DNA of 64,000 nucleotides, from NCBI GenBank assembly GCA_037431425.1, contig GCA_037431425.1_4129.1. One strand, 5' to 3'. A program made the translations under genes and the position numbers. Of the stretch, positions 29,675-54,816 are shown in pieces; position 1 is the stretch's first letter; every line of letters begins with the position of its first letter. The DNA comes from a phage. The notes under the pieces are model-generated. The model saw only the letters and a program-made list of their open reading frames with translations. It was not told the origin of the DNA and made no database searches.

Positions 29675-29866
29675 ATGTTGATTTATCAATGTGACGGTAT
29701 TCGTGTTCTACAACATCCTTATCTTCAAATCTTTCATGTTCAGATGTTTATGGAAGGTGATAATCCGAGAACTTATGAACGCACATATGATTATTTCACG
29801 GTCAAAGAGTGCGACAACATCGATGAAGTACGACGATTAGTACATGAACTCCAAAACAAAGGTTGA
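29675..29866 (+). CDS. hypothetical small protein
   Basis: Track ORF ending inside the first PeSL-like module. Confidence 0.5.
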   Translation: MLIYQCDGIRVLQHPYLQIFHVQMFMEGDNPRTYERTYDYFTVKECDNIDEVRRLVHELQNKG

Positions 29867-29892
29867 CTTCGGTCAGCCTTTTTTGTTATAAT
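29858..29892 (+). promoter_or_regulatory. PeSL-like module 1: terminator hairpin with embedded -35 TTGACT plus downstream -10
   Basis: GGTTGAC-TTCG-GTCAGCC stem-loop, T-run, then TATAAT 18 nt after TTGACT. Confidence 0.65.
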
Positions 29893-29920
29893 TATTTTAT
29901 ATTCTAATGGAGTTTAAATT

Positions 29921-30361
29921 ATGTTAGTATATCGTTTTGAACTTAAATTTAGTTACATTGAACCTGATTTGAAACCAGCAACAAATGTTGGTCCATTTGC
30001 ACGGTATTCTTCAAAATATAGTACTAAAAATGGTTTTGACCGTTTGTATATGTCTACGCCTACGCAGTTCCAACCTGAACCAACTGATGATGGGATCTAT
30101 TCAATCAAATATGGATGGGCATTTGGCTGTCAAAGTTTGAATGATTTGTTTCGGTTCTTTACTATGGACTTGGGTAAATTACATCGTGCTGGGTTTGCTA
30201 TTTCCGTATATGACGTACCTGATAATCACGTTGATATTGGACGAAACCAGGTTCAGTTCCATTATAGGAGTGCAACTTTGGTTCGTATTATGTCTATTAA
30301 GGAAGCAAAGGATGAGTACCGCCATAGTAAAAGAATAATACATGAGGCTGTATATGGATAA
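29921..30361 (+). CDS. hypothetical protein
   Basis: Track ORF downstream of PeSL-like promoter; SD ggag. Confidence 0.55.
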   Translation: MLVYRFELKFSYIEPDLKPATNVGPFARYSSKYSTKNGFDRLYMSTPTQFQPEPTDDGIYSIKYGWAFGCQSLNDLFRFFTMDLGKLHRAGFAISVYDVPDNHVDIGRNQVQFHYRSATLVRIMSIKEAKDEYRHSKRIIHEAVYG

Positions 30362-30698
30362 GACTCAAATAGAATTAAAAAAATTTGTATCGTTCTATCT
30401 ACCAAATGATCCACGTAATTCACAAAAAGATTTTGAATATTATAATATCCTAAGTAAACAGTTAATGAGAAAGTTTCAACAGTGTTTAAGTATATTCAAT
30501 ACTGATGGTAGACGTAGATACCGAATCATTTCAATGAATGATGAAAACGCAAACTACTTTGATTATGATGTTGTTTTTAGAGCATATAATGATGACCGAA
30601 TTAAATTAAATTATGATCAAATAATATTTGATCTAAGTGCTATATCTGTTATAATTACTCACATCGCCGAGATTAATGGTTTTAAAGAGTGGTATTGA
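30354..30698 (+). CDS. hypothetical protein
   Basis: Track ORF 30342..30698; ATG 30354 is an alternative start. Confidence 0.45.
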   Translation: MDKTQIELKKFVSFYLPNDPRNSQKDFEYYNILSKQLMRKFQQCLSIFNTDGRRRYRIISMNDENANYFDYDVVFRAYNDDRIKLNYDQIIFDLSAISVIITHIAEINGFKEWY

Positions 30699-30712
30699 AT
30701 AGAGGACAATAT

Positions 30713-30979
30713 ATGAAGCTTAAATTGCAATATAATGGATTTACTTTACGTAATGATACTGAGTTTGTCAATCGTTCACCTGGTGCTGAACTTTTTTTGC
30801 GAGAGATGAACATTCCTTTCATCATCACTACTGTAGGAGATCGTGAAGTTTTACAATACGCAGAGCATCCTATTATTGATGTTCCTTGGTACTCTGAACA
30901 TATGTACATGGATATGGCACGTCGCTACAACTGTAAGTTCATAGTAGAAGGTGATAAAATTACAGTACAATTTAAATGA
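30713..30979 (+). CDS. hypothetical protein
   Basis: Track ORF 30689..30979; ATG 30713 after agagga is preferred. Confidence 0.5.
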   Translation: MKLKLQYNGFTLRNDTEFVNRSPGAELFLREMNIPFIITTVGDREVLQYAEHPIIDVPWYSEHMYMDMARRYNCKFIVEGDKITVQFK

Positions 30980-31120
30980 TGTGAATTGAAATGATCATTT
31001 AAGCATCATTGTAAATGTAGAAATGGTGTACATGAAGTATAATATAAAAAGGGAAATCATATATGGTTTCCCCTTTTTCTTATTACGTACAATTAAGGAC
31101 ATATATTAATTGAGGAAATT

Positions 31121-31693
31121 ATGAATCGTAAAGGTCGTTTTAAGGTATCAAAGAAGAACAAAAGTTCTAGATTTAAGCCTATAGTTTTAACCGTTAAAGC
31201 CAAAGCGGAATTAACTGCACTTAGTAAAAAGATCATTTCATCTAAGATTAAAGTATCATACGTAAATTCGGTAAAATATCGAAAGGTTAAACCACAAGAC
31301 CTACTCATTTCACTTATATTTGAACGTAATGATTTTGAGATATCAGTGGATGATTATAGAGCCTATAATGCTGGTTTCATTAATGTTACTTGTACTACAG
31401 AACTAACTGAATTAGAACATTTGTCATGTATAGTAAATCTCGATAAAGGTGTAGTGAAATACCACTTTGTACATTTTACTAATATTAATGATGGAAAGGG
31501 TGTACAATCCAGAACTATAGTACCTACATGTGATGTGACTAAATTATCAAAGCTCAATGACGAAGAATATTTTCAAGAAAGTACTGTAACTGAATATATA
31601 GATGAAATTATAGCAACTTACAAAGAATGTATATGGGTTTTAAATGCAATGAAGCCTAAATTATGTTTGATGAATATTGTACGTGATTTATGA
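31121..31693 (+). CDS. hypothetical basic protein with C-terminal DEEYFQESTV module
   Basis: Track ORF; SD gaggaaa. Confidence 0.55.
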   Translation: MNRKGRFKVSKKNKSSRFKPIVLTVKAKAELTALSKKIISSKIKVSYVNSVKYRKVKPQDLLISLIFERNDFEISVDDYRAYNAGFINVTCTTELTELEHLSCIVNLDKGVVKYHFVHFTNINDGKGVQSRTIVPTCDVTKLSKLNDEEYFQESTVTEYIDEIIATYKECIWVLNAMKPKLCLMNIVRDL

Positions 31694-31706
31694 ATAAGGA
31701 ATTGAA

Positions 31707-32150
31707 ATGTGTTGGGTAAATGTAAACAGTATTGAGCTTAATGAAAAAGATATTTTTGCATTTGTAAATTTAACAAATAATACAGTTCTAAAAGGTCGAT
31801 TGTTCAGTTCCAGCACTGGTGAAAAATGGATTTCATTGATGAATGATTGTGGTGAGATTTATAATGTGATGTCGTTACCACAATGGGTCTATAGTAACAC
31901 TGCGGATGATGTTCTTGCAGCAGTTATGCGTGAGTTTGAAAAACTTCCCGGTGGTGATATCAAAAACAAAGTTTTTAATGCCGAGCGTAAAAATTATACA
32001 GCACAGCAATTAGAATCACTCGCTATTGCTGCATATCAAGCTGCTATTAAGAAGCCAGAATGTGTTATTCTTAAGTATATTCCAGACTTAAAACTCACAT
32101 TGGAAGATATGGATGCATTCATTTTTACATCTGAACTTGAACAGTACTGA
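31707..32150 (+). CDS. hypothetical protein
   Basis: Track ORF; SD aaggaa. Confidence 0.55.
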   Translation: MCWVNVNSIELNEKDIFAFVNLTNNTVLKGRLFSSSTGEKWISLMNDCGEIYNVMSLPQWVYSNTADDVLAAVMREFEKLPGGDIKNKVFNAERKNYTAQQLESLAIAAYQAAIKKPECVILKYIPDLKLTLEDMDAFIFTSELEQY

Positions 32151-32263
32151 TTTAACTTTGGGACAAACCTTCCTATAATGATATAATTTTTTTGTCAGTT
32201 TATTTAAATGACATATGAAATATAAATATTATTGTAAAGTTTATCTCTTATAGGAGTTATAAA

Positions 32264-32647
32264 ATGGTTGATAAATGGAATAAGAAAGAACCATCTCATG
32301 ATGTGGATATTTCTGACCTAGATAATGAACATAAACACAAGTACCTAGATTCACTAGGACTACTAAAGCCGGACCAAAGTATTGCACATGATCGTCCTTC
32401 ACGTGAAAAAGCATTCAGTCTGGAATCTCTAGGTCATGAGCTAAATCGTGTGTTTGAAGAACACCCAATCTATGTACGTGATATTATTGAGAAACTTAAA
32501 GTAACTCCTAAAGAGCACTTTAAAGCAACTGTACACTCTGCATTCAATGCATTACATGAAGCACTTAAGAAAACTCACAACCTTCGTAAGATTCATGATG
32601 ATATTGTAAATGCAATTGAAAGTGAAAAGCATAAGTTCAAAAAGTAA
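32264..32647 (+). CDS. hypothetical charged protein
   Basis: Track ORF; SD aggag; followed by PeSL-like module. Confidence 0.55.
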   Translation: MVDKWNKKEPSHDVDISDLDNEHKHKYLDSLGLLKPDQSIAHDRPSREKAFSLESLGHELNRVFEEHPIYVRDIIEKLKVTPKEHFKATVHSAFNALHEALKKTHNLRKIHDDIVNAIESEKHKFKK

Positions 32648-32653
32648 TAGAAA

Positions 32654-32686
32654 GGGTTGACTTCGGTCAGCCTTTTTTTATATACT
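32654..32686 (+). promoter_or_regulatory. PeSL-like module 2
   Basis: GGGTTGACTTCGGTCAGCC + T7 + TATACT. Confidence 0.6.
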
Positions 32687-32711
32687 ATAAATATAATCAT
32701 AGAGAAAAAAC

Positions 32712-33983
32712 ATGAAATCTATGGAGAGAAATCAAATGCCAAGTAATTTTACTGATAAAAATGGTGGTAACATGGCAGGTCACTCGGATAAATGGAGTGA
32801 ACGCAACCGCCGCCCAAATAGTTACCAAGCAGGCCAAGGTTCCCGTGGCTCCAGAAACCAAGGAACGGGACTTGCTGGCAAGGCAAACGCAGAAGCAGGT
32901 GAAGTTAAGAGTACTGAGAACATGACTGAGCTAGAAAAGCTACGTTATGTTAATTCATTAGGACTTCTTAATGCTACACAAAAACAACGTCTAGCTGATA
33001 TGGAACGCGAAGAAAAAGAAAAAACAACTACTAAAGAAGAATCAAAACAGGAAGCACCGAAGCCGTCTAACCCTGTCAAAGAACTGTCTGATAAGTTAGG
33101 TAAGATCTTTGCAAATAAACCCCAACTTATTCAAGGTATTGTCAAAGAATTACAATCTGTACCTAAAGAAGAATTAAAAGTCAAAGCACAAGCTGTTCTG
33201 GATGCAATGAAAGGAAATACCAGTACTGAACCAACTGAAGTGTTCAGTACTATTATGCGTGCACTGGAAGGTAAACAACAAGGTGAAGAACGTGGTGATG
33301 AAGTAAGTCTTGAACGTATTCTTAAAACATTTGATAGTATTGGGAAAGAAGATCGTGTTAATGCACAACAGGTTAAAAATGTTCTAGCAAAATTGGAAAA
33401 CCGTCTAGAAGGTAAAGATGATAAGATTAAATTGGTATCTGATGTAGTTGACAATGCACTTAAATCTTATGTACAAGGTGAAAAGAGTCGTTTTGTGACC
33501 GCGATGGATGCAGCATTCAATACTATGAAAAAGTACGAAGCTGACCATGGTGAGAAGGTTACACCTGATGGTTATCTGATGCGTGATGATGAAGAAGGTG
33601 CAGTAGAACAGAATGATGTTCATTCTGACGAAGATATTGATGACATGGAAGCTGAACTGTCACAAGATCGCCAAATGACTGAAAAATCACACAACGAACT
33701 AAAGAAATTAATGCAGTGGGTCGCTGATGTTGGAGAAAAAGCGGGTGCTGATAAGAAAAGTATAAACCGAAATCTTAGTTGGATTAAAGATAAAGTAGGT
33801 AACAACGCTCGCAAACTACAAAAAGCATGGACTGATGTAGTGAATGGTGCAGTAGATATTGACGTTGAATCTGGTGAAGCATATGATTATGCATTGACTA
33901 CACTTGATGATTCTTTTCGTGACTACGAAAAAGGAAACGTGACTCCTTGGGAAAAGGACATAATGAGCAAATACGGCAAATGA
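32712..33983 (+). CDS. hypothetical highly charged, low-complexity protein (about 420 aa)
   Basis: Long track ORF flanked by PeSL-like modules; N-terminal start ambiguous (ATGs at 32712, 32721, 32736). Confidence 0.6.
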   Translation: MKSMERNQMPSNFTDKNGGNMAGHSDKWSERNRRPNSYQAGQGSRGSRNQGTGLAGKANAEAGEVKSTENMTELEKLRYVNSLGLLNATQKQRLADMEREEKEKTTTKEESKQEAPKPSNPVKELSDKLGKIFANKPQLIQGIVKELQSVPKEELKVKAQAVLDAMKGNTSTEPTEVFSTIMRALEGKQQGEERGDEVSLERILKTFDSIGKEDRVNAQQVKNVLAKLENRLEGKDDKIKLVSDVVDNALKSYVQGEKSRFVTAMDAAFNTMKKYEADHGEKVTPDGYLMRDDEEGAVEQNDVHSDEDIDDMEAELSQDRQMTEKSHNELKKLMQWVADVGEKAGADKKSINRNLSWIKDKVGNNARKLQKAWTDVVNGAVDIDVESGEAYDYALTTLDDSFRDYEKGNVTPWEKDIMSKYGK

Positions 33984-33991
33984 TAACAAAA

Positions 33992-34024
33992 AGGTTGACT
34001 TCGGTCAGCCTTTTTTGTTATGAT
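33992..34024 (+). promoter_or_regulatory. PeSL-like module 3
   Basis: GGTTGACTTCGGTCAGCC + T6 + TATGAT. Confidence 0.6.
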
Positions 34025-34052
34025 AGTGCTATCCACTATTGAGGCCAGAGAG

Positions 34053-34694
34053 ATGACAAAGCAAGAAATATTCAAAACTTTAATTGACATATTACGTCCA
34101 TCTAAATTACGGTGTGCAATGGAGTTTGATATTCCTTATGCTGAACAGGTAATCTTTCCACAAGTGAAATCGGCAGGACTTACGTTACTTGGTATGGGAA
34201 TGTACTCTGTAGTAGTTGAACATAAAAACTATCCAGGTCGTGCATTTAAAGTAACCACGTCACGATGGGATGGTTTTCGTGCTTATGCAAAGTACTGCAT
34301 TGAAAACGCAGGAACTAAATTTCTTCCTGTTATATACAGTGCAAATGAGCAAGGAAACTTCGGCTGGTATGAGATGGATAAGTATTACCCTATAATTAAA
34401 CAAAAAAATAATTACGATGATTTTGTGAGTACTAAAATTGGTGATTTATATTCGTATGCACATGCTGGACAATATGCTTCATCAATATCTAATATGCGTG
34501 GTAGTCCAGAAGAAATTGCTATTGCAACAGTTGTTGCGAACATAATGAAAGAGTTTCATGGTCGTTTTGTACCAGACATTCATTCCAGAAATGTAATGAT
34601 GGACAAAGATGGTAACGTATATATCACAGATCCTATTTCATGTGATGTACGGAGAGAAATACCAATCACACAAGAAGACCCAGTTTTTTATTGA
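34053..34694 (+). CDS. putative protein kinase-like protein
   Basis: Track ORF 34020..34694 (start inside promoter -10; ATG 34053 preferred); DIHSRNVMMDKDGNVYITDP resembles a kinase catalytic loop plus DFG-like segment; GRAFKV resembles the VAIK lysine strand. Confidence 0.55.
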   Translation: MTKQEIFKTLIDILRPSKLRCAMEFDIPYAEQVIFPQVKSAGLTLLGMGMYSVVVEHKNYPGRAFKVTTSRWDGFRAYAKYCIENAGTKFLPVIYSANEQGNFGWYEMDKYYPIIKQKNNYDDFVSTKIGDLYSYAHAGQYASSISNMRGSPEEIAIATVVANIMKEFHGRFVPDIHSRNVMMDKDGNVYITDPISCDVRREIPITQEDPVFY

Positions 34695-34757
34695 CAGAAC
34701 TTTAATACTGTTATATTATTTAAAAATGATAAACGAATTGCATCTAAGGGTAAAATC

Positions 34758-35039
34758 ATGCGTTCATTTGAAAACTTAATCGGAAAAAACCGTTTAGCAG
34801 AAATTGAAGCAGATGTAAAAGAATTGTCACAATCAAAAAGTTATATCCACTTAGATGAACTTTTTATTAAGTACGGTGAAATTGGATTTAAGACACTATT
34901 TGTTTTTACTTTGAAAGTACACAGTTTAAAGTACTTCGATTTAAGTTATAAAAATGGTCAACCGAATCTATATCATATGTATTATCTCAAGAATATAGAA
35001 GAAGCTCATTCCTTATTTTCTGAATATCTGAAGGTATAA
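34758..35039 (+). CDS. hypothetical small protein
   Basis: Track ORF. Confidence 0.5.
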   Translation: MRSFENLIGKNRLAEIEADVKELSQSKSYIHLDELFIKYGEIGFKTLFVFTLKVHSLKYFDLSYKNGQPNLYHMYYLKNIEEAHSLFSEYLKV

Positions 35040-35040
35040 A

Positions 35041-35379
35041 ATGGAACAATATTTTGAATTAATTAATAAAGTGTCATTCTATGTAGTGTCATTGACGTGG
35101 GTTTATTTCATGTTTTGCTACATTATTGCATTCTTCCGATATACTACTTTATATGAACGTATCTATTATGATGCACCAATTTCATTCTTGGTGTTCTGTG
35201 CATGTACGTGGGGAATATTAGAAGTACTGATATGTGGATATAGAACTGATGAATTAAATCTGGTATCGGTATTGACTGGGTTATCACTTGGTGTTATGAT
35301 ATCTTTCTTTCCAGTATGGTTGTTCTTTGAACTGATCCATCGCATTGATGTATGGCGTTCTAATATCCCTGAAAAATAA
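35041..35379 (+). CDS. small two-helix membrane protein, RxxIPE family, copy A1
   Basis: Track ORF; hydrophobic segments; C-terminal WRSNIPEK. Confidence 0.55.
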   Translation: MEQYFELINKVSFYVVSLTWVYFMFCYIIAFFRYTTLYERIYYDAPISFLVFCACTWGILEVLICGYRTDELNLVSVLTGLSLGVMISFFPVWLFFELIHRIDVWRSNIPEK

Positions 35380-35388
35380 GGATTGATA

Positions 35389-35730
35389 ATGATTTTCTAT
35401 ACTAATGCGTTTGCTTATGCTATTGCATCAATCTACATTGTGTACTTCTTATTTGGTGGAGTACTGTACTTCTTTAAGTACAAAACATTGTTTAACCGAA
35501 TGTATCCAAATCACCCAATTGTAGTAGTACTTTTGATAATTTCTGTTGCTCATATCATTGTAGAAACAATAATGGGTATCAGTGCAGTACATTACAGTCT
35601 AGGTACTATTGTAATTATTACTATGATCATAGCATACATTTTAGTAATGGGTTCTGGTTTATTTGGGAATGTAGCAATGAAAATGTATAATCGAATCAAA
35701 ACATTACGTGATAATCTACCGGAGCGTTGA
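35389..35730 (+). CDS. small two-helix membrane protein, RxxIPE family, copy A2
   Basis: Track ORF 35383..35730; ATG 35389 after aagga; C-terminal LRDNLPER. Confidence 0.55.
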   Translation: MIFYTNAFAYAIASIYIVYFLFGGVLYFFKYKTLFNRMYPNHPIVVVLLIISVAHIIVETIMGISAVHYSLGTIVIITMIIAYILVMGSGLFGNVAMKMYNRIKTLRDNLPER

Positions 35731-35731
35731 G

Positions 35732-36076
35732 TTGTATAATTTAAATTTAATATCATATATCATAACAACAATGTTTACTTTCTATGCCTTTGTTGGTATA
35801 ATCCTACTGTACTTTAAATTTTATAAAGTCTTTGACCGTTTATTTCCATCATTGGAACATGAATTCTTAGTGGTGATGTACATATGTTTAACGTGTATGT
35901 CTACATTTTTCACTGTATTTGATGGTATCATCGGTATTAAAGCTGAAGATCCAAATGGAAGTACACTTGTTGCCTTTATCCTGGTAGGATTCTTCGGCAC
36001 TTATATCACTTTCATTTCAACATGGTCTGTGGTTGATTATCTCATTAGATTACGAGATAAAATGCCAAATCGATAG
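35732..36076 (+). CDS. small two-helix membrane protein, RxxIPE family, copy A3
   Basis: Track ORF 35708..36076; TTG start at 35732 inferred from paralog alignment and ggag SD; C-terminal LRDKMPNR. Confidence 0.45.
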   Translation: MYNLNLISYIITTMFTFYAFVGIILLYFKFYKVFDRLFPSLEHEFLVVMYICLTCMSTFFTVFDGIIGIKAEDPNGSTLVAFILVGFFGTYITFISTWSVVDYLIRLRDKMPNR

Positions 36077-36085
36077 GGGATTGCT

Positions 36086-36343
36086 ATGTTTGCATTGCGT
36101 AATAAAAATACAAAAGAGATTCTATGTATCTCAGCAGTATGGGATTGTGCAGGAAGTGAAATGATCCTCGAAGAAGGTTCAGGTGATTGTGTTTATGTTG
36201 TTCAGGATCGTCGTGAACTTGAATCATTACTTGATGAATTTAATGCTGGTGGTAATCCTAAAAGTACTGAATTCCCTGTGATTATTAATCCAGCACCACC
36301 TGGTTCTTATGAAATTCTACAACTGTGGGAGATGGATAAGTAA
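36086..36343 (+). CDS. hypothetical small protein
   Basis: Track ORF. Confidence 0.5.
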   Translation: MFALRNKNTKEILCISAVWDCAGSEMILEEGSGDCVYVVQDRRELESLLDEFNAGGNPKSTEFPVIINPAPPGSYEILQLWEMDK

Positions 36344-36723
36344 TGCGTCAAATGTACAAAGTAACCGAGCTAAACAAGCGTCTGATTAAACAATCAATGT
36401 TCGAGGACAAAGAGTCTTATTATAACTTTAAACGTGCTGTAGAGGCTGCTATCCATATCCAGAAGCTTAAAGATAGTGGTTGTATTATTCTCGAAAATGG
36501 TTCTGATGTTGTAACGGATGACTTTAGTGTAGCGTTTGATGTTTCACCAGATGGTATACTATCAATGCCACGATTAGGAACTGGAAACATGACTGTTTGG
36601 GTCGGCTTCACTATGGGTAATGTACCAGACACGGTGTATGTAGATGATATTGAGTTGAAAGAAAGCTTCAAAAACTTATCTTATCTTGAACCACAATACG
36701 CACATGAAATGAATTTATTTTGA
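36343..36723 (+). CDS. hypothetical protein
   Basis: Track ORF; ATGA-type overlap. Confidence 0.5.
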   Translation: MRQMYKVTELNKRLIKQSMFEDKESYYNFKRAVEAAIHIQKLKDSGCIILENGSDVVTDDFSVAFDVSPDGILSMPRLGTGNMTVWVGFTMGNVPDTVYVDDIELKESFKNLSYLEPQYAHEMNLF

Positions 36724-36724
36724 G

Positions 36725-36752
36725 TTGACAAACAGATTTAGTACTGTATAAT
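36725..36752 (+). promoter_or_regulatory. sigma70-type promoter (TTGACA-N16-TATAAT)
   Basis: Consensus; TAGTACTG immediately upstream of -10. Confidence 0.7.
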
Positions 36753-36799
36753 GTTTACCAACGGGATGAATTTCCCATCCCTACTATCGAGGAATTACC

Positions 36800-37354
36800 A
36801 TGATTACTTTTAAGAAAACAGCTAACCATATCCATGAAATTTACATTAACGGTCATAAAGCTGGGCTTCTTCGCTTACTGGCACATCATCCTAATGTAGA
36901 CGTATCTGATAATGAACCTAAAGATTGGCGTGTCTTTTTCTTTGGAAAGTACAGTGATTTTCAAGTATCAAATCTGAAGAAGATTCGTTCAGTATGCACG
37001 TTAACTGAAATTAAAGAAAAGTTAGCAGAAGCACTGAAAACCAATCCAGATGGAATCCTTCCTCCTGATAACTTTGTAGATAAAGGTTATGCTTTAGCTC
37101 ATTTCAAAGATGGTACTATTCAATCTATTAGTACTGAATATGAATATCAATGGACTGAGTACTTCACTTATGGCTCACCTAATACATTGATGGCTTCACG
37201 TAGTAAATTGGAAGAAGTACTGACACGTATTAATGAACGCGAGCGTCAGTTCTATGACAAACCAGAAATGTGGAGTTCAACTCACATTGACCGTATTGAC
37301 TATGTTATTATGACTCCAATCTTTAACACTGCTTACTATGATTCTTTGAAATAA
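36800..37354 (+). CDS. hypothetical protein
   Basis: Track ORF downstream of promoter 36725..36752; SD gaggaa. Confidence 0.6.
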   Translation: MITFKKTANHIHEIYINGHKAGLLRLLAHHPNVDVSDNEPKDWRVFFFGKYSDFQVSNLKKIRSVCTLTEIKEKLAEALKTNPDGILPPDNFVDKGYALAHFKDGTIQSISTEYEYQWTEYFTYGSPNTLMASRSKLEEVLTRINERERQFYDKPEMWSSTHIDRIDYVIMTPIFNTAYYDSLK

Positions 37355-37365
37355 GGATAACTTAT

Positions 37366-37542
37366 ATGAAACTACGTACTCGTAATCGCCTGATGGATGC
37401 ACTGTACCATGAACAGTATTCATTAAATGAAGTAAAGAGACAGTTAATGTATACATATCAGTTACCTGCCCGTGCTGCGAAACAACGTGCTAAAGAATTA
37501 CTGAAAGAAGCTATCGAGTACTGGGAGTCTGATTCGTATTAA
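37366..37542 (+). CDS. hypothetical small protein (58 aa)
   Basis: Manually found; SD aaggata upstream. Confidence 0.4.
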   Translation: MKLRTRNRLMDALYHEQYSLNEVKRQLMYTYQLPARAAKQRAKELLKEAIEYWESDSY

Positions 37543-37581
37543 TATTACGTGATATGTCACATTAATTAAGTGAGACGATAA

Positions 37582-37833
37582 ATGAAAATTTTATTAGTTC
37601 TAATACTACTAATTGTTTTACCATTTACTTTAGTATCTCCTGAACTTGCATGGAATGTGTTTGTGTACTTGGTATGTACTATTGCGGTAAATGGTATCTT
37701 GTTCTTAGTTCTATTCATAAATGGAATAGGACACGGTGGTGGATGGACCAGTACTGCTAATATTGTACATAAAACCACTATGTCTTTATTTGTAGTGTGG
37801 AATTTATTCTGGACTTGGTTTGTGTTCTTCTAA
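37582..37833 (+). CDS. hypothetical membrane protein
   Basis: Track ORF; hydrophobic throughout. Confidence 0.5.
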   Translation: MKILLVLILLIVLPFTLVSPELAWNVFVYLVCTIAVNGILFLVLFINGIGHGGGWTSTANIVHKTTMSLFVVWNLFWTWFVFF

Positions 37834-37841
37834 TTAAAAAT

Positions 37842-38213
37842 ATGAATATAGATTTGAAAGGTTCAACACGAACTGTTATCCTTATTGGTGATTATGCTAT
37901 TAAGATTCCAACCTTTAAAAGTTGGAAGTTATTCCTAACTGGAATGATAGCGAACCTCAATGAACGTTCATGGATGCAGTACTCCAATCGTAGTGATAGT
38001 GGAATATCCCCTACGCTGTGGTCCTCTCGTACTGGTTTAATAACAATACAGAAACGTTGTAAACCTGTACAACATAGGGGTTTATTTTGGGTTGAGTTGT
38101 GTGCGTTGGCATCAAAATCAGAGTTGAATACTGACTTCTTCTATTCAGATGCGAAGCCAGAAAACTTTGGGTATCTGTGTGGTAAGTTGGTTAAACTTGA
38201 TTATGGAGATTAA
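37842..38213 (+). CDS. putative small protein kinase-like protein
   Basis: Track ORF 37797..38213 trimmed to ATG 37842; SDAKPENFG...LVKLDYGD resembles a kinase catalytic loop plus DFG; IGDYAIKIP is VAIK-like. Confidence 0.5.
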   Translation: MNIDLKGSTRTVILIGDYAIKIPTFKSWKLFLTGMIANLNERSWMQYSNRSDSGISPTLWSSRTGLITIQKRCKPVQHRGLFWVELCALASKSELNTDFFYSDAKPENFGYLCGKLVKLDYGD

Positions 38214-38214
38214 T

Positions 38215-38484
38215 ATGTACGCATTGTATAATAAAGAAAAGAAACGATTTGCTAAGGTTGAAATTTCGATTGATACATTTGACATGTTGGAGTACTGTAT
38301 TGTAACGGATTTATATGCTAACTTGTATTACGTTCTTGATGACGTATCAGTACTGCAACGATTGCTTGAGAATTCCAAAAGTCAATGCCAGGGCATCTAT
38401 GATGGTTCATCTTATGAAACACCTGAGTGTTCCTACGGCTATCTGGACGGGTATGAGATTGTGAAGTTGGGGATTGTTGAATAA
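38215..38484 (+). CDS. hypothetical small protein
   Basis: Track ORF 38149..38484; ATG 38215 after ggagatt is preferred. Confidence 0.45.
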   Translation: MYALYNKEKKRFAKVEISIDTFDMLEYCIVTDLYANLYYVLDDVSVLQRLLENSKSQCQGIYDGSSYETPECSYGYLDGYEIVKLGIVE

Positions 38485-38496
38485 ATGGATTAAACA

Positions 38497-38910
38497 ATGA
38501 AGAAGTGTATCACGTGTAATATTGAAAAAGACATTAGTGAATTTGGTATAAGAAAAGATACTGGGAAACATAGAAATACATGCAAAGGTTGTAGTAATAT
38601 TACCAGTAAGAAAACCAGAAATAAAAAAACTGATGTCAAAAAACTTGAAGAAATCAAAAGAAAAAATAAAGATTTCATGTCCAGAGTTAAATCATTTTAT
38701 GGTTGTAGTATTTGTATGATGAAGTATCCAGAATGTTTAGACTTTCATCATCTTGATCCGAATATCAAAGAACATACACCAAGTTCTATGTTCAGTAAAA
38801 GTCGAGATGCTATCAAAGATGAAATTCGAAAGTGTATGATTCTTTGTTCTAATCATCATCGCATGGTCCATTCTGGAAGACTATGCTTAATTGAAAGAAA
38901 AAAGGGTTGA
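38497..38910 (+). CDS. HNH endonuclease-like protein (homing-endonuclease-like)
   Basis: Track ORF; CxxC...CxxC and DFHHLDP...CSNHHRMVH fit an HNH/zinc-finger motif. Confidence 0.6.
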   Translation: MKKCITCNIEKDISEFGIRKDTGKHRNTCKGCSNITSKKTRNKKTDVKKLEEIKRKNKDFMSRVKSFYGCSICMMKYPECLDFHHLDPNIKEHTPSSMFSKSRDAIKDEIRKCMILCSNHHRMVHSGRLCLIERKKG

Positions 38911-38936
38911 CTTCTGTCAGCCCTTTTTGCTATAAT
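38904..38936 (+). promoter_or_regulatory. PeSL-like module 4
   Basis: GGGTTGACTTCTGTCAGCCC + T5 + GCTATAAT; downstream roughly 25 bp identical to module 6. Confidence 0.65.
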
Positions 38937-38966
38937 CATTTCATCGAAGCTTGAGGATATTAAAAA

Positions 38967-39449
38967 ATGAACTACTTAGATTTGATTAACTCATATGTAA
39001 TTAGCCCATATATTAACGATGAAAGTATTAAATGTGTAGTATCAGTTGAGGATCACCCAACTGGTGCATTAAAACTATTTGGTGCAGGTCAAATTAACAA
39101 CCGCAACGGGTATACATTTGAATATTTACCATCAAGTGATAAGTTTGGATGTTATGACCACGAAACAAATAAGGGATATATTTGGGGAACACACTTAAGT
39201 ATTGCACAATCTTCGCTTTTCGAAGACCATAATGGGTATATGTGGCGATATTTAGGTGCAGTACTGCTTGATATCGCCCGTAGGTATAAGAAGTGTATAA
39301 CATTAACTTATACTCATACAAATGAATATAAAAACGAAGTTCAAGTTATTGATGAGGATTTTTTTAAAAATATTCCTTATATTGATTTTAACTGTCAAAA
39401 TGGTTATGCTACATACCCAGCAAGTTTTGAAGGTGAAAGATACTTTTAA
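38967..39449 (+). CDS. hypothetical protein
   Basis: Track ORF downstream of PeSL-like promoter; SD gagga. Confidence 0.6.
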   Translation: MNYLDLINSYVISPYINDESIKCVVSVEDHPTGALKLFGAGQINNRNGYTFEYLPSSDKFGCYDHETNKGYIWGTHLSIAQSSLFEDHNGYMWRYLGAVLLDIARRYKKCITLTYTHTNEYKNEVQVIDEDFFKNIPYIDFNCQNGYATYPASFEGERYF

Positions 39450-39541
39450 AAAGAGTTGATTTAAAATGTATAAGTGATATACTTATCATATCAAGACGAA
39501 ACAACAACCAACATGTAAACGCTACTAATTAGGAGACACAC

Positions 39542-39952
39542 ATGATCAACAAACATTTCGCAGTTTCCAAAACTGTAACCATCGATAATGAATGGGAAAT
39601 TACCATTCTAAATGATACGGCTCGTGGACTACTGGCAGAGAATATTCTCCAGAAGTATATTGACTGTGAATCTGAGTTGATCATTCATGAACGCACTAAA
39701 TTTCTTCTAATTGGTGGAAAGAAATGTAAAGTTCTGGTATTCACCGACAAAATGACTCGTGCAGATATCATTACTAAATTGGTTAGTTCTTCACGTCATC
39801 GTCCGGGTGTTAATAGATCAATTGATGAGATTAAAGAAATGAAGCCAGGTGATTTATTCATTGTTGCAGGGTTTGATTCAAAAACAAGAAAAATGAGTAT
39901 TTCAGAAATGTATACTAATGCTGAAATGCGTAACAAATTCTTTTCTAACTAA
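39542..39952 (+). CDS. hypothetical protein
   Basis: Track ORF; SD aggaga. Confidence 0.55.
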   Translation: MINKHFAVSKTVTIDNEWEITILNDTARGLLAENILQKYIDCESELIIHERTKFLLIGGKKCKVLVFTDKMTRADIITKLVSSSRHRPGVNRSIDEIKEMKPGDLFIVAGFDSKTRKMSISEMYTNAEMRNKFFSN

Positions 39953-39987
39953 TCAACCCATGTAGTGTAATCTTATACACATTTTAG

Positions 39988-41205
39988 ATGGATAAAAATA
40001 TGATCTTCGAAACTGAAAAAACATTACTTGAAACTTACACTTTGGATAATCTAGTTAAACTTAACCTTGAACGACCAGATATCCAACGCAATTGGCAATG
40101 GAAAAATAATAACCAAAACAATCTTATTATTTCCATTCTAAAGAATTCTCCAATTGGTCAATTTTTAGTATGGAATGAAACTAGTTCAAATACGATGTAC
40201 ATCACTGATGGTCGTCATCGCTATACAGTAATTTCAAACTTCATGAACAATAAATTCCCAGTCACTGTTAGAACTGAAGATGGGACTAAGGATTATTATT
40301 ATGGTTCTGATGATCCAGTAGAAGAAGAAAGCATTTCACTGAAACTTGGTGGAAAGCGTAAAACATGGGATTTTTTATCTAAAGAAGAGCGTGATGCTTT
40401 TCGTGCAAAGGAAGTATCAGTAACATTCGTTCATACAGACGATGCTGAAAAGATTTCAGATATGTTTATTGCAATTAATACTGCATCATCTAATCTATGT
40501 AAAGTTGATTTGTTAGTATGTAAGCACCACACAAATACATATATGAAACGTATTGATAAGCTATTTTCAATTGAGTTTGGCAAAGATGAACCCATGGCAG
40601 CATTAGTGAGTGATTTTTACCGTGCAATCGGTCATTGTTGTGTTAATGGTAATCATGAGAAACACTTATCGAAGCTTAAAGCTAACCCTAAAGTACAGAA
40701 GCGTGAATTTTTTGAAATGTTCTTTATGGTCAAAGCGTTCGCGAAATTATGTGCTAGTGCACTAGATGGTAAGCTAAACTCATACCGTATGCCAAAGATG
40801 AACCAACAAATTGAAGAAGCAATTATTAGTACTGAATCTCTTAGTGAGAAACATGCTGATGCTGATTTTGTTCAGTTTGTTAATGCAGTTCGTGAGATGA
40901 ATTTGGTATCACCTGTAAAATCTGCACAAAAATTTCAATTTATCCATGAAGATATGAAGAATACCTTTAATAAGAGACTCTTTTGTATTTTGATGGGATT
41001 GTTTTATGCTTATGGTACAAGATTGCCATTACATTTTCGTGATGTATGGGGTGACATTTATAATGAAATGTCAGAAAAAAGTTCAGAACTACCTACTAAT
41101 GGAACCGATAGTCCTTCCGCAATTTTAGCTGGCATTGAAATGATTGAACCATACTTTAGTTCAGCATTTAATAATATTCCATTGAGTGCTTACGTGGGAA
41201 AGTGA
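39988..41205 (+). CDS. DUF262/ParB-like nuclease-domain protein (GmrSD N-terminal-like)
   Basis: N-terminal PDIQRNWQW and DGRHR motifs resemble the DUF262 signature (QR..W and DGQQR); stop overlaps the GTG start of the next HNH ORF. Confidence 0.6.
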   Translation: MDKNMIFETEKTLLETYTLDNLVKLNLERPDIQRNWQWKNNNQNNLIISILKNSPIGQFLVWNETSSNTMYITDGRHRYTVISNFMNNKFPVTVRTEDGTKDYYYGSDDPVEEESISLKLGGKRKTWDFLSKEERDAFRAKEVSVTFVHTDDAEKISDMFIAINTASSNLCKVDLLVCKHHTNTYMKRIDKLFSIEFGKDEPMAALVSDFYRAIGHCCVNGNHEKHLSKLKANPKVQKREFFEMFFMVKAFAKLCASALDGKLNSYRMPKMNQQIEEAIISTESLSEKHADADFVQFVNAVREMNLVSPVKSAQKFQFIHEDMKNTFNKRLFCILMGLFYAYGTRLPLHFRDVWGDIYNEMSEKSSELPTNGTDSPSAILAGIEMIEPYFSSAFNNIPLSAYVGK

Positions 41206-41414
41206 AAAAACGTGGTGTACTAAATACACCACAAAAACAATATCTTTTGAAAAGATATTCTTTGTGTTATCTTTGTGGACAGAAGATATCGGATTCAGAT
41301 ATACTACATTTTGACCATGTTCAATCATTAAAAGATGGTGGTAGTAATGAATTAAGTAATATACGACCAACGCACTCCATTTGTAATTTACGTAAAGGTG
41401 CTAAGAGTATGTAA
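41202..41414 (+). CDS. small HNH endonuclease
   Basis: CxxC followed by HFDHVQSLKDGGSNELSNIRPTHSICNLRKG (HNH); GTGA overlap with upstream stop suggests translational coupling. Confidence 0.65.
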   Translation: MKKRGVLNTPQKQYLLKRYSLCYLCGQKISDSDILHFDHVQSLKDGGSNELSNIRPTHSICNLRKGAKSM

Positions 41415-41463
41415 AGCTAATACTCCCCAAAGATGGGGAGTATATATAATTAAAGGGATTTAT

Positions 41464-42300
41464 ATGAGTATTAAAAATAAATTAGATCAGTATTATACAA
41501 ATCCAGAGTATGCTAAAAAATGTTATACTAAATCATTAGAGTTTATTTCGTCTCGAATGGACATTAATTCATCTTATTATATGGAGCCTTGTGTTGGGAC
41601 TGGTTCGTTTTATCTACAGTTTCCTGAATCCCGTCGATTTGGGTGTGACATTGATCCGGTACATCTTGATGAAAATGTTATCCATTCCGATTTTTTACTT
41701 GAATTTGGTATCAATGCAAGAAGTAAAGGTGAACCAATACTTGTTATAAGTAATCCACCTTTTGGGAAAATTTCTTCTTTAGCCATTAAGTTTTTTAATA
41801 AATGTGCATCAATGCCTGAAGTGAAATATATTTGTTTTATTGTCCCTATGACATTTCGAAAAGCAGCAACACAAAATAAACTCAATGAGATGTTTCACCT
41901 GGTATTAGATGAAGATTCACCAAATGACGCTTTTATACTGCACGGAGAACCACATCATGTACCATGCGTATTTCAGATATGGGAACGTAGGGATACAGTT
42001 CGTGAGAAACATGAGATTAAGAACAAATCAGACTATTTCGACTATTGTACTAAGGAAGAGGCTGATGTTTTTATAAAACGTGTAGGAACCAAAGCAGGTG
42101 AGTATGCCGAGCCAGGGAAAGAACACAAAGATGCAAGTATGTACTACATTAAAACTAAGTATGTTGATGAAATCATTAAGGTTTTGAAAAGTAAAGATTA
42201 CCTTGATGAGATAAAACGTATACGTAAAACCACAGCAGGGGTATACTGTGTGTCCAAATCTGAAATCGTTCTTAATATTGAAAAACGTTTGAATCTTTGA
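41464..42300 (+). CDS. N6-adenine DNA methyltransferase (NPPF-type)
   Basis: Track ORF 41398..42300 trimmed to ATG 41464 with SD aaaggga; motif I EPCVGTGSF and motif IV SNPPFGK. Confidence 0.7.
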   Translation: MSIKNKLDQYYTNPEYAKKCYTKSLEFISSRMDINSSYYMEPCVGTGSFYLQFPESRRFGCDIDPVHLDENVIHSDFLLEFGINARSKGEPILVISNPPFGKISSLAIKFFNKCASMPEVKYICFIVPMTFRKAATQNKLNEMFHLVLDEDSPNDAFILHGEPHHVPCVFQIWERRDTVREKHEIKNKSDYFDYCTKEEADVFIKRVGTKAGEYAEPGKEHKDASMYYIKTKYVDEIIKVLKSKDYLDEIKRIRKTTAGVYCVSKSEIVLNIEKRLNL

Positions 42301-42308
42301 AAATTATA

Positions 42309-42340
42309 GGTTGACTTCGGTCAGCCTTTATTGTTATAAT
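42309..42340 (+). promoter_or_regulatory. PeSL-like module 5 (upstream of denV)
   Basis: GGTTGACTTCGGTCAGCC + TTTATTG + TTATAAT. Confidence 0.6.
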
Positions 42341-42368
42341 CATTTTATATAACCAAGAGGATGATTAC

Positions 42369-42872
42369 ATGACACGCATTAATTTAGTACACGTTAAAGA
42401 ACTTGCTGACCAACATTTGATGGCTGAATATCGTGAACTTCCACGGGTGTTCGGTGCTGTACAAAAACACGTTCAAGCACGTAAGCGTGTCCGTGATTTT
42501 AAAATTAACAGTACTTATCTGTTAGGTTCAGGCCATGTGACATTCTTCTACGACAAGTTACTGTACTTACAAAAGCGTCATGTTGAGATTGTTAACGAAT
42601 GTTTGCGTCGTGGTATGAAGATTCAAAACACGGAAGTAAACGACATCAGCGGCTTCCCTGATGAGTTTTGTAATGACTACGTACCATCGGAGTCAGAGAT
42701 TAAAATGTCTCGTGACCGTTTGATTGAGAAGCTCCAGATGAAGCCTAAGTGGTATAAGTTTACTGCTGTTGAAATTCCACAGTACGTTAAAGATATGCAG
42801 AACGTAAAATCTAGTACTGATATGTTCGAAGAAATTGAAGAGCAAATCAAAGATGAAATGAATAATTATTAA
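42369..42872 (+). CDS. denV: endonuclease V, pyrimidine-dimer DNA glycosylase/AP lyase
   Basis: N-terminal half [35 protein letters not shown]...[10 protein letters not shown] closely matches T4 DenV as recalled; flanked by PeSL-like modules. Confidence 0.9.
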
Positions 42873-42876
42873 AGGT

Positions 42877-42911
42877 AAGGGTTGACTTCGGTCAACCCTT
42901 TTTGCTATAAT
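42877..42911 (+). promoter_or_regulatory. PeSL-like module 6 (downstream of denV)
   Basis: AAGGGTTGACTTCGGTCAACCCTT perfect 10-bp stem + T-run + GCTATAAT. Confidence 0.65.
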
Positions 42912-42939
42912 CATTTCATCAACTACAGAGGGTAACGAA

Positions 42940-46556: not shown

Positions 46557-46601
46557 TAAAAATCCAGTACTATTAAGTACTGGATTATTTGAGGTAGAGC
46601 A

Positions 46602-47249
46602 ATGAAATCGAAATTAGGTTTGTTTTACAGTAATTATTTTGTTAAGCAGCGTAAATTTATAAAGAAATACTTCTCTACAGAGAAGTCCGGTCCTATAATT
46701 TTTAAAAGATCAAAATATTATACTTACTTAGCTGGTGTTAAACAGTCTAAAAAATTTATTGCTCTATTAAATAAAAATAAAGTGAAAGCTTCTTATGTTG
46801 AAACCAGAAAAAATTCCCCTATAACTCCTAGTGATTTTATTGAGTACGGGTGTTTTTATATTGAGAATAATGGTAACACCTATTTTATGGATATTGATTG
46901 TAATACATCGAATCTTTTTAACATTGTAATAAAACCATCAAAACAATATAATGTTTATGGTGATGCTAATATAAAATTGATCAAAAACAAAGATTGGTTT
47001 GATTTTGAAATAAATGTTTTAGATGAAAATTTTGATGAAGTGCCCAGTAAACCTGAAATATGTGATATTCTAAATAGTTTAAAAGGTAGTAGCTACAATA
47101 TACCATCTGATTTAATGTTTCAGTACTCTTTAATAGATAAAGATATTGAAGATTATATTGCGTGTGCTAAAATCTTGAATTATCTGTATGATGAATTTAA
47201 AAAGAGTTCTAAAATCACAGCATTCACACTTTATAATATTTCTATATAA
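46602..47249 (+). CDS. hypothetical protein (215 aa)
   Basis: Track ORF; SD gaggtaga; followed by bidirectional terminator. Confidence 0.6.
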   Translation: MKSKLGLFYSNYFVKQRKFIKKYFSTEKSGPIIFKRSKYYTYLAGVKQSKKFIALLNKNKVKASYVETRKNSPITPSDFIEYGCFYIENNGNTYFMDIDCNTSNLFNIVIKPSKQYNVYGDANIKLIKNKDWFDFEINVLDENFDEVPSKPEICDILNSLKGSSYNIPSDLMFQYSLIDKDIEDYIACAKILNYLYDEFKKSSKITAFTLYNISI

Positions 47250-47259
47250 TTTAAAATAT

Positions 47260-47290
47260 TAAAGCCAGTTCTCTCGTACTGGCTTTAATA
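47260..47290. terminator. bidirectional terminator between 46602..47249 (+) and the RCC1-like array (-)
   Basis: AAAGCCAGT-TCTCTCG-TACTGGCTTT with flanking A/T runs. Confidence 0.6.
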
Positions 47291-48436: not shown

Positions 48437-48484
48437 AATTTCTCTCCCTCATTCATTATACTGTATTTAACCCAATTAAGAAAA

Positions 48485-48503
48485 GCCAGTATCAAGTACT
48501 GGT
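48485..48503 (-). terminator. intergenic hairpin between RCC1-like paralogs
   Basis: CCAGTA-TCAAG-TACTGG preceded by A-run on + (T-run on - strand). Confidence 0.55.
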
Positions 48504-48509
48504 ATTTTA

Positions 48510-49859: not shown

Positions 49860-49906
49860 ATTTCCCTCCTTTATTCATTATACTATATTTAATACTAAAA
49901 GAAAAA

Positions 49907-49925
49907 GCCAGTACAGAGTACTGGC
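49907..49925 (-). terminator. intergenic hairpin between RCC1-like paralogs
   Basis: GCCAGTAC-AGA-GTACTGGC; T-run on - strand. Confidence 0.6.
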
Positions 49926-49931
49926 ATTATT

Positions 49932-51083: not shown

Positions 51084-51130
51084 ATTTCCCTCCTTTATTC
51101 ATTATACTATATTTAATACTAAAAGAAAAA

Positions 51131-51150
51131 GCCAGTACTTGAGTACTGGC
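51131..51150 (-). terminator. intergenic hairpin between RCC1-like paralogs
   Basis: GCCAGTACTTGAGTACTGGC; T-run on - strand. Confidence 0.6.
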
Positions 51151-51157
51151 TTTCTTA

Positions 51158-52348: not shown

Positions 52349-52391
52349 ATCCCCTCCTTATTCATTATACTATATTTAATCAAAAATAAAA

Positions 52392-52410
52392 GCCAGTATC
52401 AAGTACTGGC
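52392..52410 (-). terminator. intergenic hairpin between RCC1-like paralogs
   Basis: GCCAGTATCAAGTACTGGC. Confidence 0.6.
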
Positions 52411-52424
52411 ATAGTTTTATAATA

Positions 52425-53531: not shown

Positions 53532-53576
53532 ATCCCCTCCTTATTCATTATACTATATTTAATACAAATAAGAAAA

Positions 53577-53595
53577 GCCAGTATCAAGTACTGGC
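53577..53595 (-). terminator. intergenic hairpin between RCC1-like paralogs
   Basis: GCCAGTATCAAGTACTGGC. Confidence 0.6.
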
Positions 53596-53601
53596 CTATA
53601 T

Positions 53602-54771: not shown

Positions 54772-54816
54772 AATTAAATCTCCAAAATTAAAATAATTAT
54801 ATAGTATTTACAAAAA

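Follow-up and report, generated by a model that had tools for sequence, protein, structure and literature searches.

Are the six near-identical stem-loops that recur in a 64,000-nucleotide stretch of phage DNA (contig GCA_037431425.1_4129.1, hereafter the window) plain transcription terminators, or do they join a terminator to an early promoter and mark the borders at which gene cassettes are exchanged? The original prediction had assigned them to the promoter early stem-loops (PeSLs), which were proposed as hotspots of modular gene shuffling in T4-type phages. Our analysis indicates that the six repeats are probably composite regulatory cassettes of the PeSL type, lying among the early accessory genes of an Asteriusvirus, and their sequence anatomy supports a combined terminator and sigma-70 promoter.

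The window was searched with the pattern GGTTGACNNNNGTCAGCC, allowing up to two mismatches. Exactly six sites were found on the plus strand (29861, 32655, 33993, 38905, 42309 and 42880), with a chance expectation of 0.06 matches in the shuffled window; matches on the minus strand were the same palindromic sites. The pattern was fitted exactly by five of the six copies, the remaining one having GTCAACC. All six predicted hairpins were recovered, with positions differing by 0-3 nucleotides (nt) from those predicted, flanking A/G bases having been included there. The resulting modules are as follows.

Module 1: 29858-29920, plus strand; hairpin 29858-29881, -35 hexamer TTGACT 29863-29868, -10 hexamer TATAAT 29887-29892, ATG 29921.
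Module 2: 32651-32711, plus strand; -35 hexamer 32657-32662, -10 hexamer TATACT 32681-32686 without a preceding TG, ATG 32712.
Module 3: 33989-34052, plus strand; -35 hexamer 33995-34000, -10 hexamer TATGAT 34019-34024, ATG 34053.
Module 4: 38902-38966, plus strand; loop TTCT, -35 hexamer 38907-38912, -10 hexamer TATAAT 38931-38936, leader CATTTCATCGAAGC, ATG 38967.
Module 5: 42308-42368, plus strand; -35 hexamer 42311-42316, -10 hexamer TATAAT 42335-42340, ATG of denV 42369.
Module 6: 42877-42939, plus strand; -35 hexamer 42882-42887, -10 hexamer TATAAT 42906-42911, leader CATTTCATCAACTACAGAGGG, ATG 42940.

Alignment and a position table revealed one fixed layout of about 60 bases in all six copies. 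An A-rich tract (AAAACAAA, GAAAAAA or similar) lies upstream of the -35 hexamer and leads into the hairpin (G)GGTTGAC-TTCG-GTCAGCC(C), with GTCAACC in copy 6 and the loop TTCT in the copy at 38905. Five to seven T follow, broken up in copy 5, where the weaker tract TTTATT is found. The first five bases of the hexamer TTGACT end the 5' arm and its sixth base opens the loop; the predicted distance of 18 nt between TTGACT and a TATAAT-like hexamer was confirmed in six of six copies. This second hexamer is TATAAT in four copies, TATACT in one and TATGAT in one; it is preceded by TG in five of the six, and the -35/-10 pairs match the consensus at 10-11 of 12 positions. The ATG follows the end of the -10 hexamer after 25-30 nt, with GAGG or GGAG in between, in every copy. 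The stop codon of the upstream open reading frame (ORF) is located 0-10 nt ahead of the hairpin and, in two modules, inside it. In modules 1 and 4 the upstream stop TGA lies within TTGAC (29864-29866 and 38908-38910, the latter ending a 137-amino-acid ORF), and these bases would have three roles at once, in the stop codon, in the promoter and in the stem of the terminator. The six copies have exact runs of 10-32 nt in common and 35-48 identities over 61 positions; the hairpin of module 6 is a perfect palindrome, GGGTTGAC-TTCG-GTCAACCC.

Hairpin scans revealed no further TTGAC-containing hairpin elsewhere in the window. No Rfam family matched the modules, the only Rfam matches in the window being six transfer RNAs (tRNAs). 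Among 5,426 complete Escherichia coli genomes no near-exact copy of the module was found, and hence it was apparently not borrowed from the host. A mobile element resembling a miniature inverted-repeat transposable element was also considered and ruled out: terminal inverted repeats beyond the hairpin and target duplications are lacking, and both the orientation of the modules and their joining to a Shine-Dalgarno sequence and ATG are constant.

The window was 98.1% identical over its full region to Escherichia phage ph0011 (348 kb), and 86-90% identical to 121Q, PBECO4, phAPEC6, G17 and other Asteriusvirus phages, with 60-75% coverage in 4-9 pieces. Judged by this similarity, the source phage is an Asteriusvirus, a Rak2-like jumbo coliphage and not a T4-type phage; a phage sigma-factor gene is present in the window. 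The original reading of the modules as PeSLs is supported, with the correction that the genome is not of the T4 type. The six modules are confined to 29.8-42.9 kb of the window, where the relatives cover 60-75% in 4-9 pieces, as compared to 91-98% in 2-4 pieces at 12-27 kb. The region from 46 to 61 kb is even more plastic and contains no such module; the link between modules and plasticity is therefore not exclusive. The 5-9 copies detected by BLAST per relative genome about equal the number in this one region.

The homologous regions of G17, ph0011, UE-S1, CRJP21, 121Q and WPEC5 were then compared with the window. Each of these six relatives carries 5-9 modules there, and in all six the modules sit at cassette boundaries, as had been proposed; an absence of modules from such boundaries, which would have counted against the PeSL reading, was not observed. 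BLAST chains of the window against the 121Q type, read for differences of 100 bp or more, gave six indels (a to f); the junctions of four of the six lie within modules. At module 2 (indel b) the alignments of both flanks traverse the single module of the window (32642-32683). The same site holds two modules around the 114-nt gene 200 in 121Q, G17 and CRJP21, and two modules around three ORFs in WPEC5. At module 3 (indel d) the alignments overlap at 33970-34016, and the 121Q-type relatives have two modules around genes 202-204. Indel e comprises 3.8 kb (38485-42309) present in the window and in ph0011, with a single module in the others; WPEC5 retains a remnant of the 137-amino-acid ORF and, behind it, one module. 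Compared with WPEC5, the additional DNA therefore spans module 4 to module 5.

At module 6 (indel f) denV is followed in the relatives by a half-module, present in 121Q, G17, CRJP21 and UE-S1, then by varied genes amounting to 0.7-4.8 kb and by a full module. The left side of module 6, through GGGTTGACTTCGGTCA, aligns with the denV side of 121Q and UE-S1; from GGGTTGACTTCGGTCA onward it matches the right-hand module of the relatives, which precedes the gene-223 homologue. This switch places the exchange point within the hairpin, and by its alignment module 6 is a left/right hybrid of two modules of the relatives. A comparable mosaic was found in WPEC5, in which the orthologue of module 1 has kept its orthologous flanks and carries the leader TATTTCATCAACTACTGG. 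This leader resembles that of another WPEC5 module (L006:10292) and is unlike the leaders of the other module 1 orthologues, and the alignment shows a leader apparently swapped between two modules of one genome. Altogether, six of about 38 gene junctions bear modules, and four of the five intergenic events fell on these six; a binomial estimate made by hand gave about 0.003, with the events assumed to be independent. Copies 4 and 6, together with their counterparts in the relatives, form the most uniform subtype and stand in the most variable stretch, around denV.

Several observations weigh against the PeSL reading. Indel a (30997/31104) lies off the modules beside a plain terminator hairpin at 31051, and indel c, of about 290 bp, falls within a gene encoding 423 amino acids, also away from any module. 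No module-linked difference was found between the window and ph0011, which are 98% identical. It may be that insertions survive only where a transcription unit ends, in which case modules would be associated with indels without proof of recombination there, and genes for HNH or homing endonucleases occur in the cassettes of some relatives, offering another possible route of movement. As to the anatomy, a spacer of 18 bp is suboptimal for sigma-70, module 2 combines the absence of TG with a TATACT hexamer, and the U-tract of module 5 is interrupted. The plain hairpin at 31051-31072 (plus strand, GGGAAATCATATATGGTTTCCC followed by a T-run) has no -35 hexamer and is the sole site of an intergenic indel off the modules; the relatives have one to three extra small genes there.

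According to a first alternative, which we regard as unlikely, the modules are real terminator-promoter units but passive landmarks, and homing endonucleases or illegitimate recombination shuffle cassettes that survive only at transcription-unit boundaries. In its favour are the two indels outside modules, the endonuclease or HNH genes found in cassettes (121Q gene 221, WPEC5 CDS0126, GAP32_516, GAP32_520 and KVP40.0040), and the right junction of the half-module, which shows no homology to a module. This alternative is possible for some events, but it fits poorly with the pattern of one versus two modules, the hybrid module 6 and the leader mosaic of WPEC5. At modules 2, 3 and 6 a single module traversed by the alignments of both flanks corresponds to two in the relatives, which is the product expected of an exchange between repeats. 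In addition, mini-circles were demonstrated for the PeSLs of phage RB49 (PMC2839356).

Since the six copies in the window could be mere copies of each other, the promoter was examined in unrelated contigs. A scan of IMG/VR for AAGGGTTG-N9-11-CCCTTTT gave at least 120 stretches, from which 76 unique hairpins with at least six pairs were used; a hexamer was counted as -10-like when at least five positions matched TATAAT, and offsets of 10-44 were examined. Among the matches listed, all of the form AAGGG-TTG...CCC-TTTT, a -10-like hexamer was found at spacers of 17, 18 and 19 nt in 15, 6 and 2 cases, respectively, with mostly 0-3 at the other offsets and 5 at a spacer of 24. Hairpins with TTGACT or TTGACG had such a hexamer in 12 of 13 cases, again among the matches listed. 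In Yersinia phage fHe-Yen9-03, the stretch that matches the module carries -35 and -10 signals in the GenBank annotation. That the -10 hexamer is phased at a spacer of 17-18 in unrelated contigs of viruses argues for a promoter. On the plus strand of the window about 30 further strong sigma-70-like promoters were found, mostly with TTGACA, a spacer of 16-17 nt and no hairpin; hence the six modules stand apart as a subclass of their own among the early-type promoters of the phage.

The phasing also bears on a second alternative, namely that the repeats are ordinary intrinsic terminators, the hexamers being by-products of a GC clamp and AT-rich sequence and having no promoter function. The GenBank records of G17, UE-S1 and Munch annotate terminators only, some copies in the relatives have a poor -10 hexamer (e.g., GTAAATAT at L005:8823), and a copy in Streptococcus phage Javan570 has no clear one. 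These points are outweighed in our assessment, and we consider this alternative very improbable: besides the sharp peak at spacer 17-18 among the listed matches, the 18-nt spacing occurs in all six window copies and TG in five of them, and the distance from -10 to ATG is regular. Furthermore, the arm that carries the -35 hexamer is invariant whereas the 3' arm varies, and the other terminators of the window (11382, 14787, 21732, 22221 and 31051) do not contain TTGAC. One orthologous module in the relatives (L005:8823, L001:7856, L004:8825 and L006:9610) has kept the hairpin and T-run and carries GTAAATA(T/C) in the -10 position. A late-type motif ATAAATA was reported for phages CBB and GAP32 (PMC5259590); the module resembles it and could have been retargeted to another promoter class, or it could be a decayed copy.

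The hairpin was also analyzed as RNA. The plus-strand module RNAs gave fold energies of -11.6 to -19.2 kcal/mol (z of -3.7 to -6.0 against shuffles). The complementary strand folded 4.7-9.3 kcal/mol more weakly in five of six copies because the U·G wobble turns into a C·A mismatch there. Loop and closing pair read C(UUCG)G, a classic stable RNA tetraloop. An automated scan returned a terminator-like verdict for three of the six window copies, and other annotators have predicted terminators at module sites in G17 (by ARNOLD, with energies of -13.5 to -17 kcal/mol), UE-S1 and Munch. Among the six relatives the -35 arm is invariant and the 3' arm is only GTCAGCC, GTCAACC or GTCGGCC; these differences are A/G opposite U and keep the pairing in RNA only.

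Covariation was determined for 63 unique variants from the window, its relatives, other phages and viral contigs, selected by GG-TTG...CC-TTT and a -10-like hexamer, pairing not being a criterion. The three TTG pairs were formed in 60, 52 and 61 of the 63 variants. At the inner pair 4 the combinations A-T, C-G, G-C and T-A all occur, and pairs 4-5 were formed in 83 of 126 cells as compared to 61.7 ± 4.8 when the 3' arms were dealt at random (maximum 81 in 2000 trials). The G·U wobbles, the covariation and the difference in folding between the strands argue for a hairpin formed in RNA. A third alternative, a DNA operator GGTTGAC-N4-GTCA(A/G)CC for a dimeric phage or host regulator shutting off early promoters, with RNA folding irrelevant, could appeal to the inverted repeat overlapping the -35 hexamer and to the palindrome of module 6, but is hardly credible given that five of six copies break the DNA symmetry where the plus-strand RNA alone keeps a U·G pair, that pairing and not sequence is conserved across the variants, that loops differ freely in nt-1, KVP40 and the listed viral contigs, and that terminators typically have such A- and T-tract flanks, a UUCG loop and a place directly behind a stop codon.

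From the anatomy, conservation, covariation and location of indel junctions described above we infer how the PeSL-type modules may terminate, initiate and recombine. In the plus-strand transcript, a hairpin of 7-10 bp whose UUCG loop is closed by a C-G pair, located 0-10 nt past the upstream stop codon and leading into a U-tract, would have the form of an intrinsic terminator. In duplex DNA, the same bases would act as a host sigma-70 promoter, the 5' arm and first loop base giving the -35 hexamer TTGACT and the 3' arm and T-run an 18-bp spacer, next to which the TGn-extended -10 hexamer lies. Transcription is predicted to start about 7 nt past the -10 hexamer, within a CATC motif, producing a leader of about 21 nt with the Shine-Dalgarno sequence. 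At each module one early transcription unit would close and another open, so that every cassette would be expressed independently. As the modules are direct repeats, phage recombination between them could delete, insert or replace whole cassettes with the neighbours left undisturbed. If transcription ended within the promoter spacer, the RNA polymerase set free there might possibly begin a new round on that module without delay.

How closely do these modules resemble known PeSLs? The PeSLs of phages RB49 and phi1 were described as strong sigma-70 promoters joined to stem-loop terminators; they follow a stop codon, precede the Shine-Dalgarno sequence and ATG of the next gene, cluster in hyperplastic regions and flank indels, and those of RB49 had promoter and terminator activity in lacZ fusions and formed mini-circles (PMC2839356). 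The modules of the window likewise combine sigma-70 promoter and stem-loop terminator between stop codon and Shine-Dalgarno/ATG, and are repeated in plastic regions where they flank indels. In contrast, the stems of RB49 are mostly poly-G/poly-C and take varied positions, chiefly between -35 and -10 or over the -10 hexamer, whereas the window modules follow one rigid layout; the promoter, terminator and mini-circle activities of the RB49 PeSLs are experimental, whereas the window modules are known from their sequence. We dropped the idea that a stem overlapping the -35 hexamer falls outside the PeSL definition, since one of five published PeSL subclasses has this arrangement (PMC2839356).

The resemblance is closer to the Schizo-T-even vibriophages nt-1 and KVP40. 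Comeau, Arbiol and Krisch extended PeSLs to the pairs PST/T4 and nt-1/KVP40 in 2014, with the stem just upstream of the promoter; for nt-1/KVP40 they gave the stem consensus A3-4G3-loop-C3T3-4, the -35 hexamer TTGYVH and degraded half copies (PMC4122927). Examples were found at 44.6, 54.9 and 55.5 kb of nt-1, at 21.1 kb of KVP40 and in Vibrio phage 1.081.O. The sequences of nt-1, from the region highlighted in that study (PMC4122927), are AAAAAGGGTTGACAGATGTCAGCCCTTTTTTGTATCAT, AAAAGGGTTGCTTCGGCAGCCCTTTTTTGTTATTCTACATTTATCAACTTAGAGAGG and AAAAGGGTTGCACTATGCAGCCCTTTTTAGTATTATATCTACATCGAAACGAGA; KVP40 and Vibrio phage 1.081.O have AAAAGGGTTGACT(G/T)CGGTCAGCCC, then the -10 hexamer, and the KVP40 leader is TTCATCAACACG. 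Common to these PeSLs and the window modules are, in order, the A-tract, GGG, TTGAC, a loop, GTCAG, CCC and T5-6, followed by the -10 hexamer, a leader with CATCAAC or CATCGAAAC, the Shine-Dalgarno sequence and ATG; both adjoin indels in plastic regions. Judged by this comparison, the window module is of the same sequence type as the published PeSLs, including the leader motif CATCAAC/CATCGAAAC at the predicted start, which bears out the proposed match to the PeSL concept. The window modules differ by a nearly constant UUCG loop, a -10 hexamer nearer to TATAAT and a spacer of 18 nt as compared to N17 in the published nt-1/KVP40 consensus, and their genome is that of an Asteriusvirus, not of the Straboviridae. 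No cargo genes shared with the window were found by tblastn beside the modules of CR9, KVP40 and nt-1; GAP32 alone shares genes.

The window modules display sigma-70-like hexamers at promoter spacing, an overlapping stem-loop, an upstream AT-rich tract with a stop codon, a Shine-Dalgarno sequence with ATG, repetition in a hyperplastic region, and indel junctions as well as half copies at the motifs. They do not reside in a T4-type (Straboviridae) genome, as all published PeSLs do; this difference lies in the phages from which PeSLs have been reported and not in their construction. The Rak2-like phage CBB belongs to the same group as the window phage and likewise relies on sigma-70 promoters of the host, grouped where its small early genes lie. 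The early promoters reported for it are RpoD-like and have UP-like elements, rho-independent terminators being listed separately, and the terms "stem-loop" and "PeSL" are absent from that paper (PMC5259590); 5-9 BLAST matches to the module were found in CBB. In the literature apart from the RaK2 and GAP32 genome papers, no description of PeSLs or composite terminator-promoters in Asteriusvirus or Rak2-like phages was found; papers on Rak2-like phages other than that on CBB did not take up promoters and terminators. Integron attC cassettes offer an analogy only: there, too, short structured repeats bound promoter-dependent cassettes that are gained or lost as units, possibly through circular intermediates. 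Unlike integrons, the window has no integrase and no attC-type structure, its repeat carries its own promoter and terminator, and exchange at the modules would rest on general homologous recombination.

A BLAST search with the module matched 177 phage records. All Asteriusvirus records carry it in 5-9 copies each; Klebsiella RaK2-like phages have up to 15, Salmonella phage Munch 11, CBB 9 and GAP32 6. Further matches were found in Erwinia and Yersinia jumbo phages and in 49 Vibrio and 19 Aeromonas records, among which Aeromonas phage 65 has the full hairpin and TACTAT at spacer 18. Certrevirus phages contain single copies, that of CR9 having the leader CCCATCGAAACAGGAG. A Herelleviridae phage of Brochothrix carries AAGGGTTGACTTCGGTCAGCCCTTTTGTTATTAT, with the same hairpin and a TGn-extended -10 hexamer at spacer 17. 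This identical core in a phage of a Gram-positive host indicates that the core can arise by convergence, and hairpin identity alone is therefore no evidence of common descent or transfer. We tentatively raise the idea, doubtful as it is at present, that a hairpin embedding the -35 hexamer is a cassette joint common to several large virulent phage families, either by repeated origin or by interfamily spread offering 20-50 bp of homology for cassette swaps. The families concerned may include Rak2-like jumbo phages, Schizo-T-evens, Aeromonas T4-likes, Certrevirus and even a Herelleviridae phage of a Gram-positive host. Repeated origin may mean that this is the most compact fusion of a UUCG terminator to a sigma-70/sigma-A promoter; interfamily spread may let unrelated co-infecting phages swap early-gene cassettes.

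Two of the cassettes bracketed by modules were analyzed for their gene content.

Cassette between modules 4 and 5: 38967-42300, plus strand; ORFs of 160, 136, 405 and 300 amino acids.
denV, pyrimidine dimer DNA glycosylase: 42369-42872, plus strand; Pfam Pyr_excise, E = 1.8e-15; single-gene cassette.

As predicted, denV is alone between modules 5 and 6. In the larger cassette, the 405-amino-acid ORF encodes an NsnA-like DUF262/GmrSD_N protein (PADLOC, E = 2.6e-15) and the 300-amino-acid ORF a type II N6-adenine methyltransferase; these two genes constitute a defence-like cargo at 39988-42300 (plus strand). Among 50,697 phage records the cassette was found in ph0011 only, the DNA match in Cronobacter phage GAP32 (genus Mimasvirus) being limited to the methyltransferase, and the DUF262 protein of GAP32 is related to that of the window by tblastn only. 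GAP32 has homologues of the 137-amino-acid ORF, the DUF262 gene, the methyltransferase and an AAA gene in the same order, and its DUF262-methyltransferase cassette has a module on each side (L009:1072 and 3862). The cassette thus looks ancestral, and this comparison suggests that it was probably lost from the 121Q-type genomes via exchange between two modules. GAP32 also contains a degenerate module, TGGTTGACTTGGGTCAGCCATTTTGCTATTGT (L009:650-690), within the coding sequence annotated as HNH endonuclease GAP32_516 and just past the end of the tblastn homology to the 137-amino-acid ORF (L009:244-633). The GAP32_516 coding sequence may be a fusion across an old module or may be mis-annotated. 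The gene that starts at ATG 34053, after module 3, is labelled "protein kinase" in the GenBank annotation of the relatives; its 213-amino-acid product gave no Pfam match, and the label comes from that annotation alone.

Other repeats were observed in the window. The palindrome CAGTACTG is its commonest 8-mer, with 43 copies as compared to 0.62 expected from base composition, and AGTACT occurs 184 times as compared to 21.9 expected. Sites of CAGTACTG include 7267, 7647, 8406, 24153, 61042 and 63851, with clusters at 60564-62264; it abuts the -10 hexamer of many plain sigma-70-like promoters (tcagtactgTATAATgtt) and is also present in coding sequence and hairpin stems. Six Asteriusvirus relatives show the same enrichment (7-14 copies per about 20 kb), and the stretches of nt-1, KVP40 and CR9 examined have no copy; the palindrome might be bound by a regulator, mark a site of modification or act as a signal for recombination. 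Six tRNA genes (Ser-tga, Arg-tct, Ser-gct, Met, Asn and Thr) are located at 6153-9988 on the plus strand, and promoters of the type TTGACT...cagtactgTATAAT are found amid this cluster, for example at 7253, 7633 and 8392.

A second family of composite hairpin-promoters was detected on the minus strand at 46561-55969, ahead of tandem paralogous genes. Seven paralogous ORFs of 368-449 amino acids are located there, annotated in relatives as RCC1 or DNA-condensation proteins; six of them start with MLPF and follow a conserved unit of the form GCCAGTACT-loop-GTACTGGC, then TTTTCTTTT, AGTATTAAATATAGTATAAT, GAATAAGGAGG and ATG. The unit has no TTGACA -35 hexamer and hence, in analogy to the PmSLs of nt-1, is possibly a promoter recognized by the sigma factor that the phage itself encodes. 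No part of the window is more plastic than this stretch, of which the relatives cover 31-55% in 4-13 pieces.

To our knowledge, PeSLs are the only dedicated device proposed for modular gene shuffling in large virulent phages, and the idea has so far rested on three pairs of T4-type genomes. New here are PeSL-type cassettes in Asteriusvirus, comparative evidence at the level of junctions, and a compact design that recurs across phage families. The element of about 35 bp, with its two predicted functions, is suited to reporter constructs. For the annotation of jumbo phages it would follow that records in which these sites are listed as terminators only probably miss the starts of early transcription units. 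If the PeSL reading is true in 350-kb Rak2-like jumbo phages, PeSLs would be more general in building and editing accessory gene sets.

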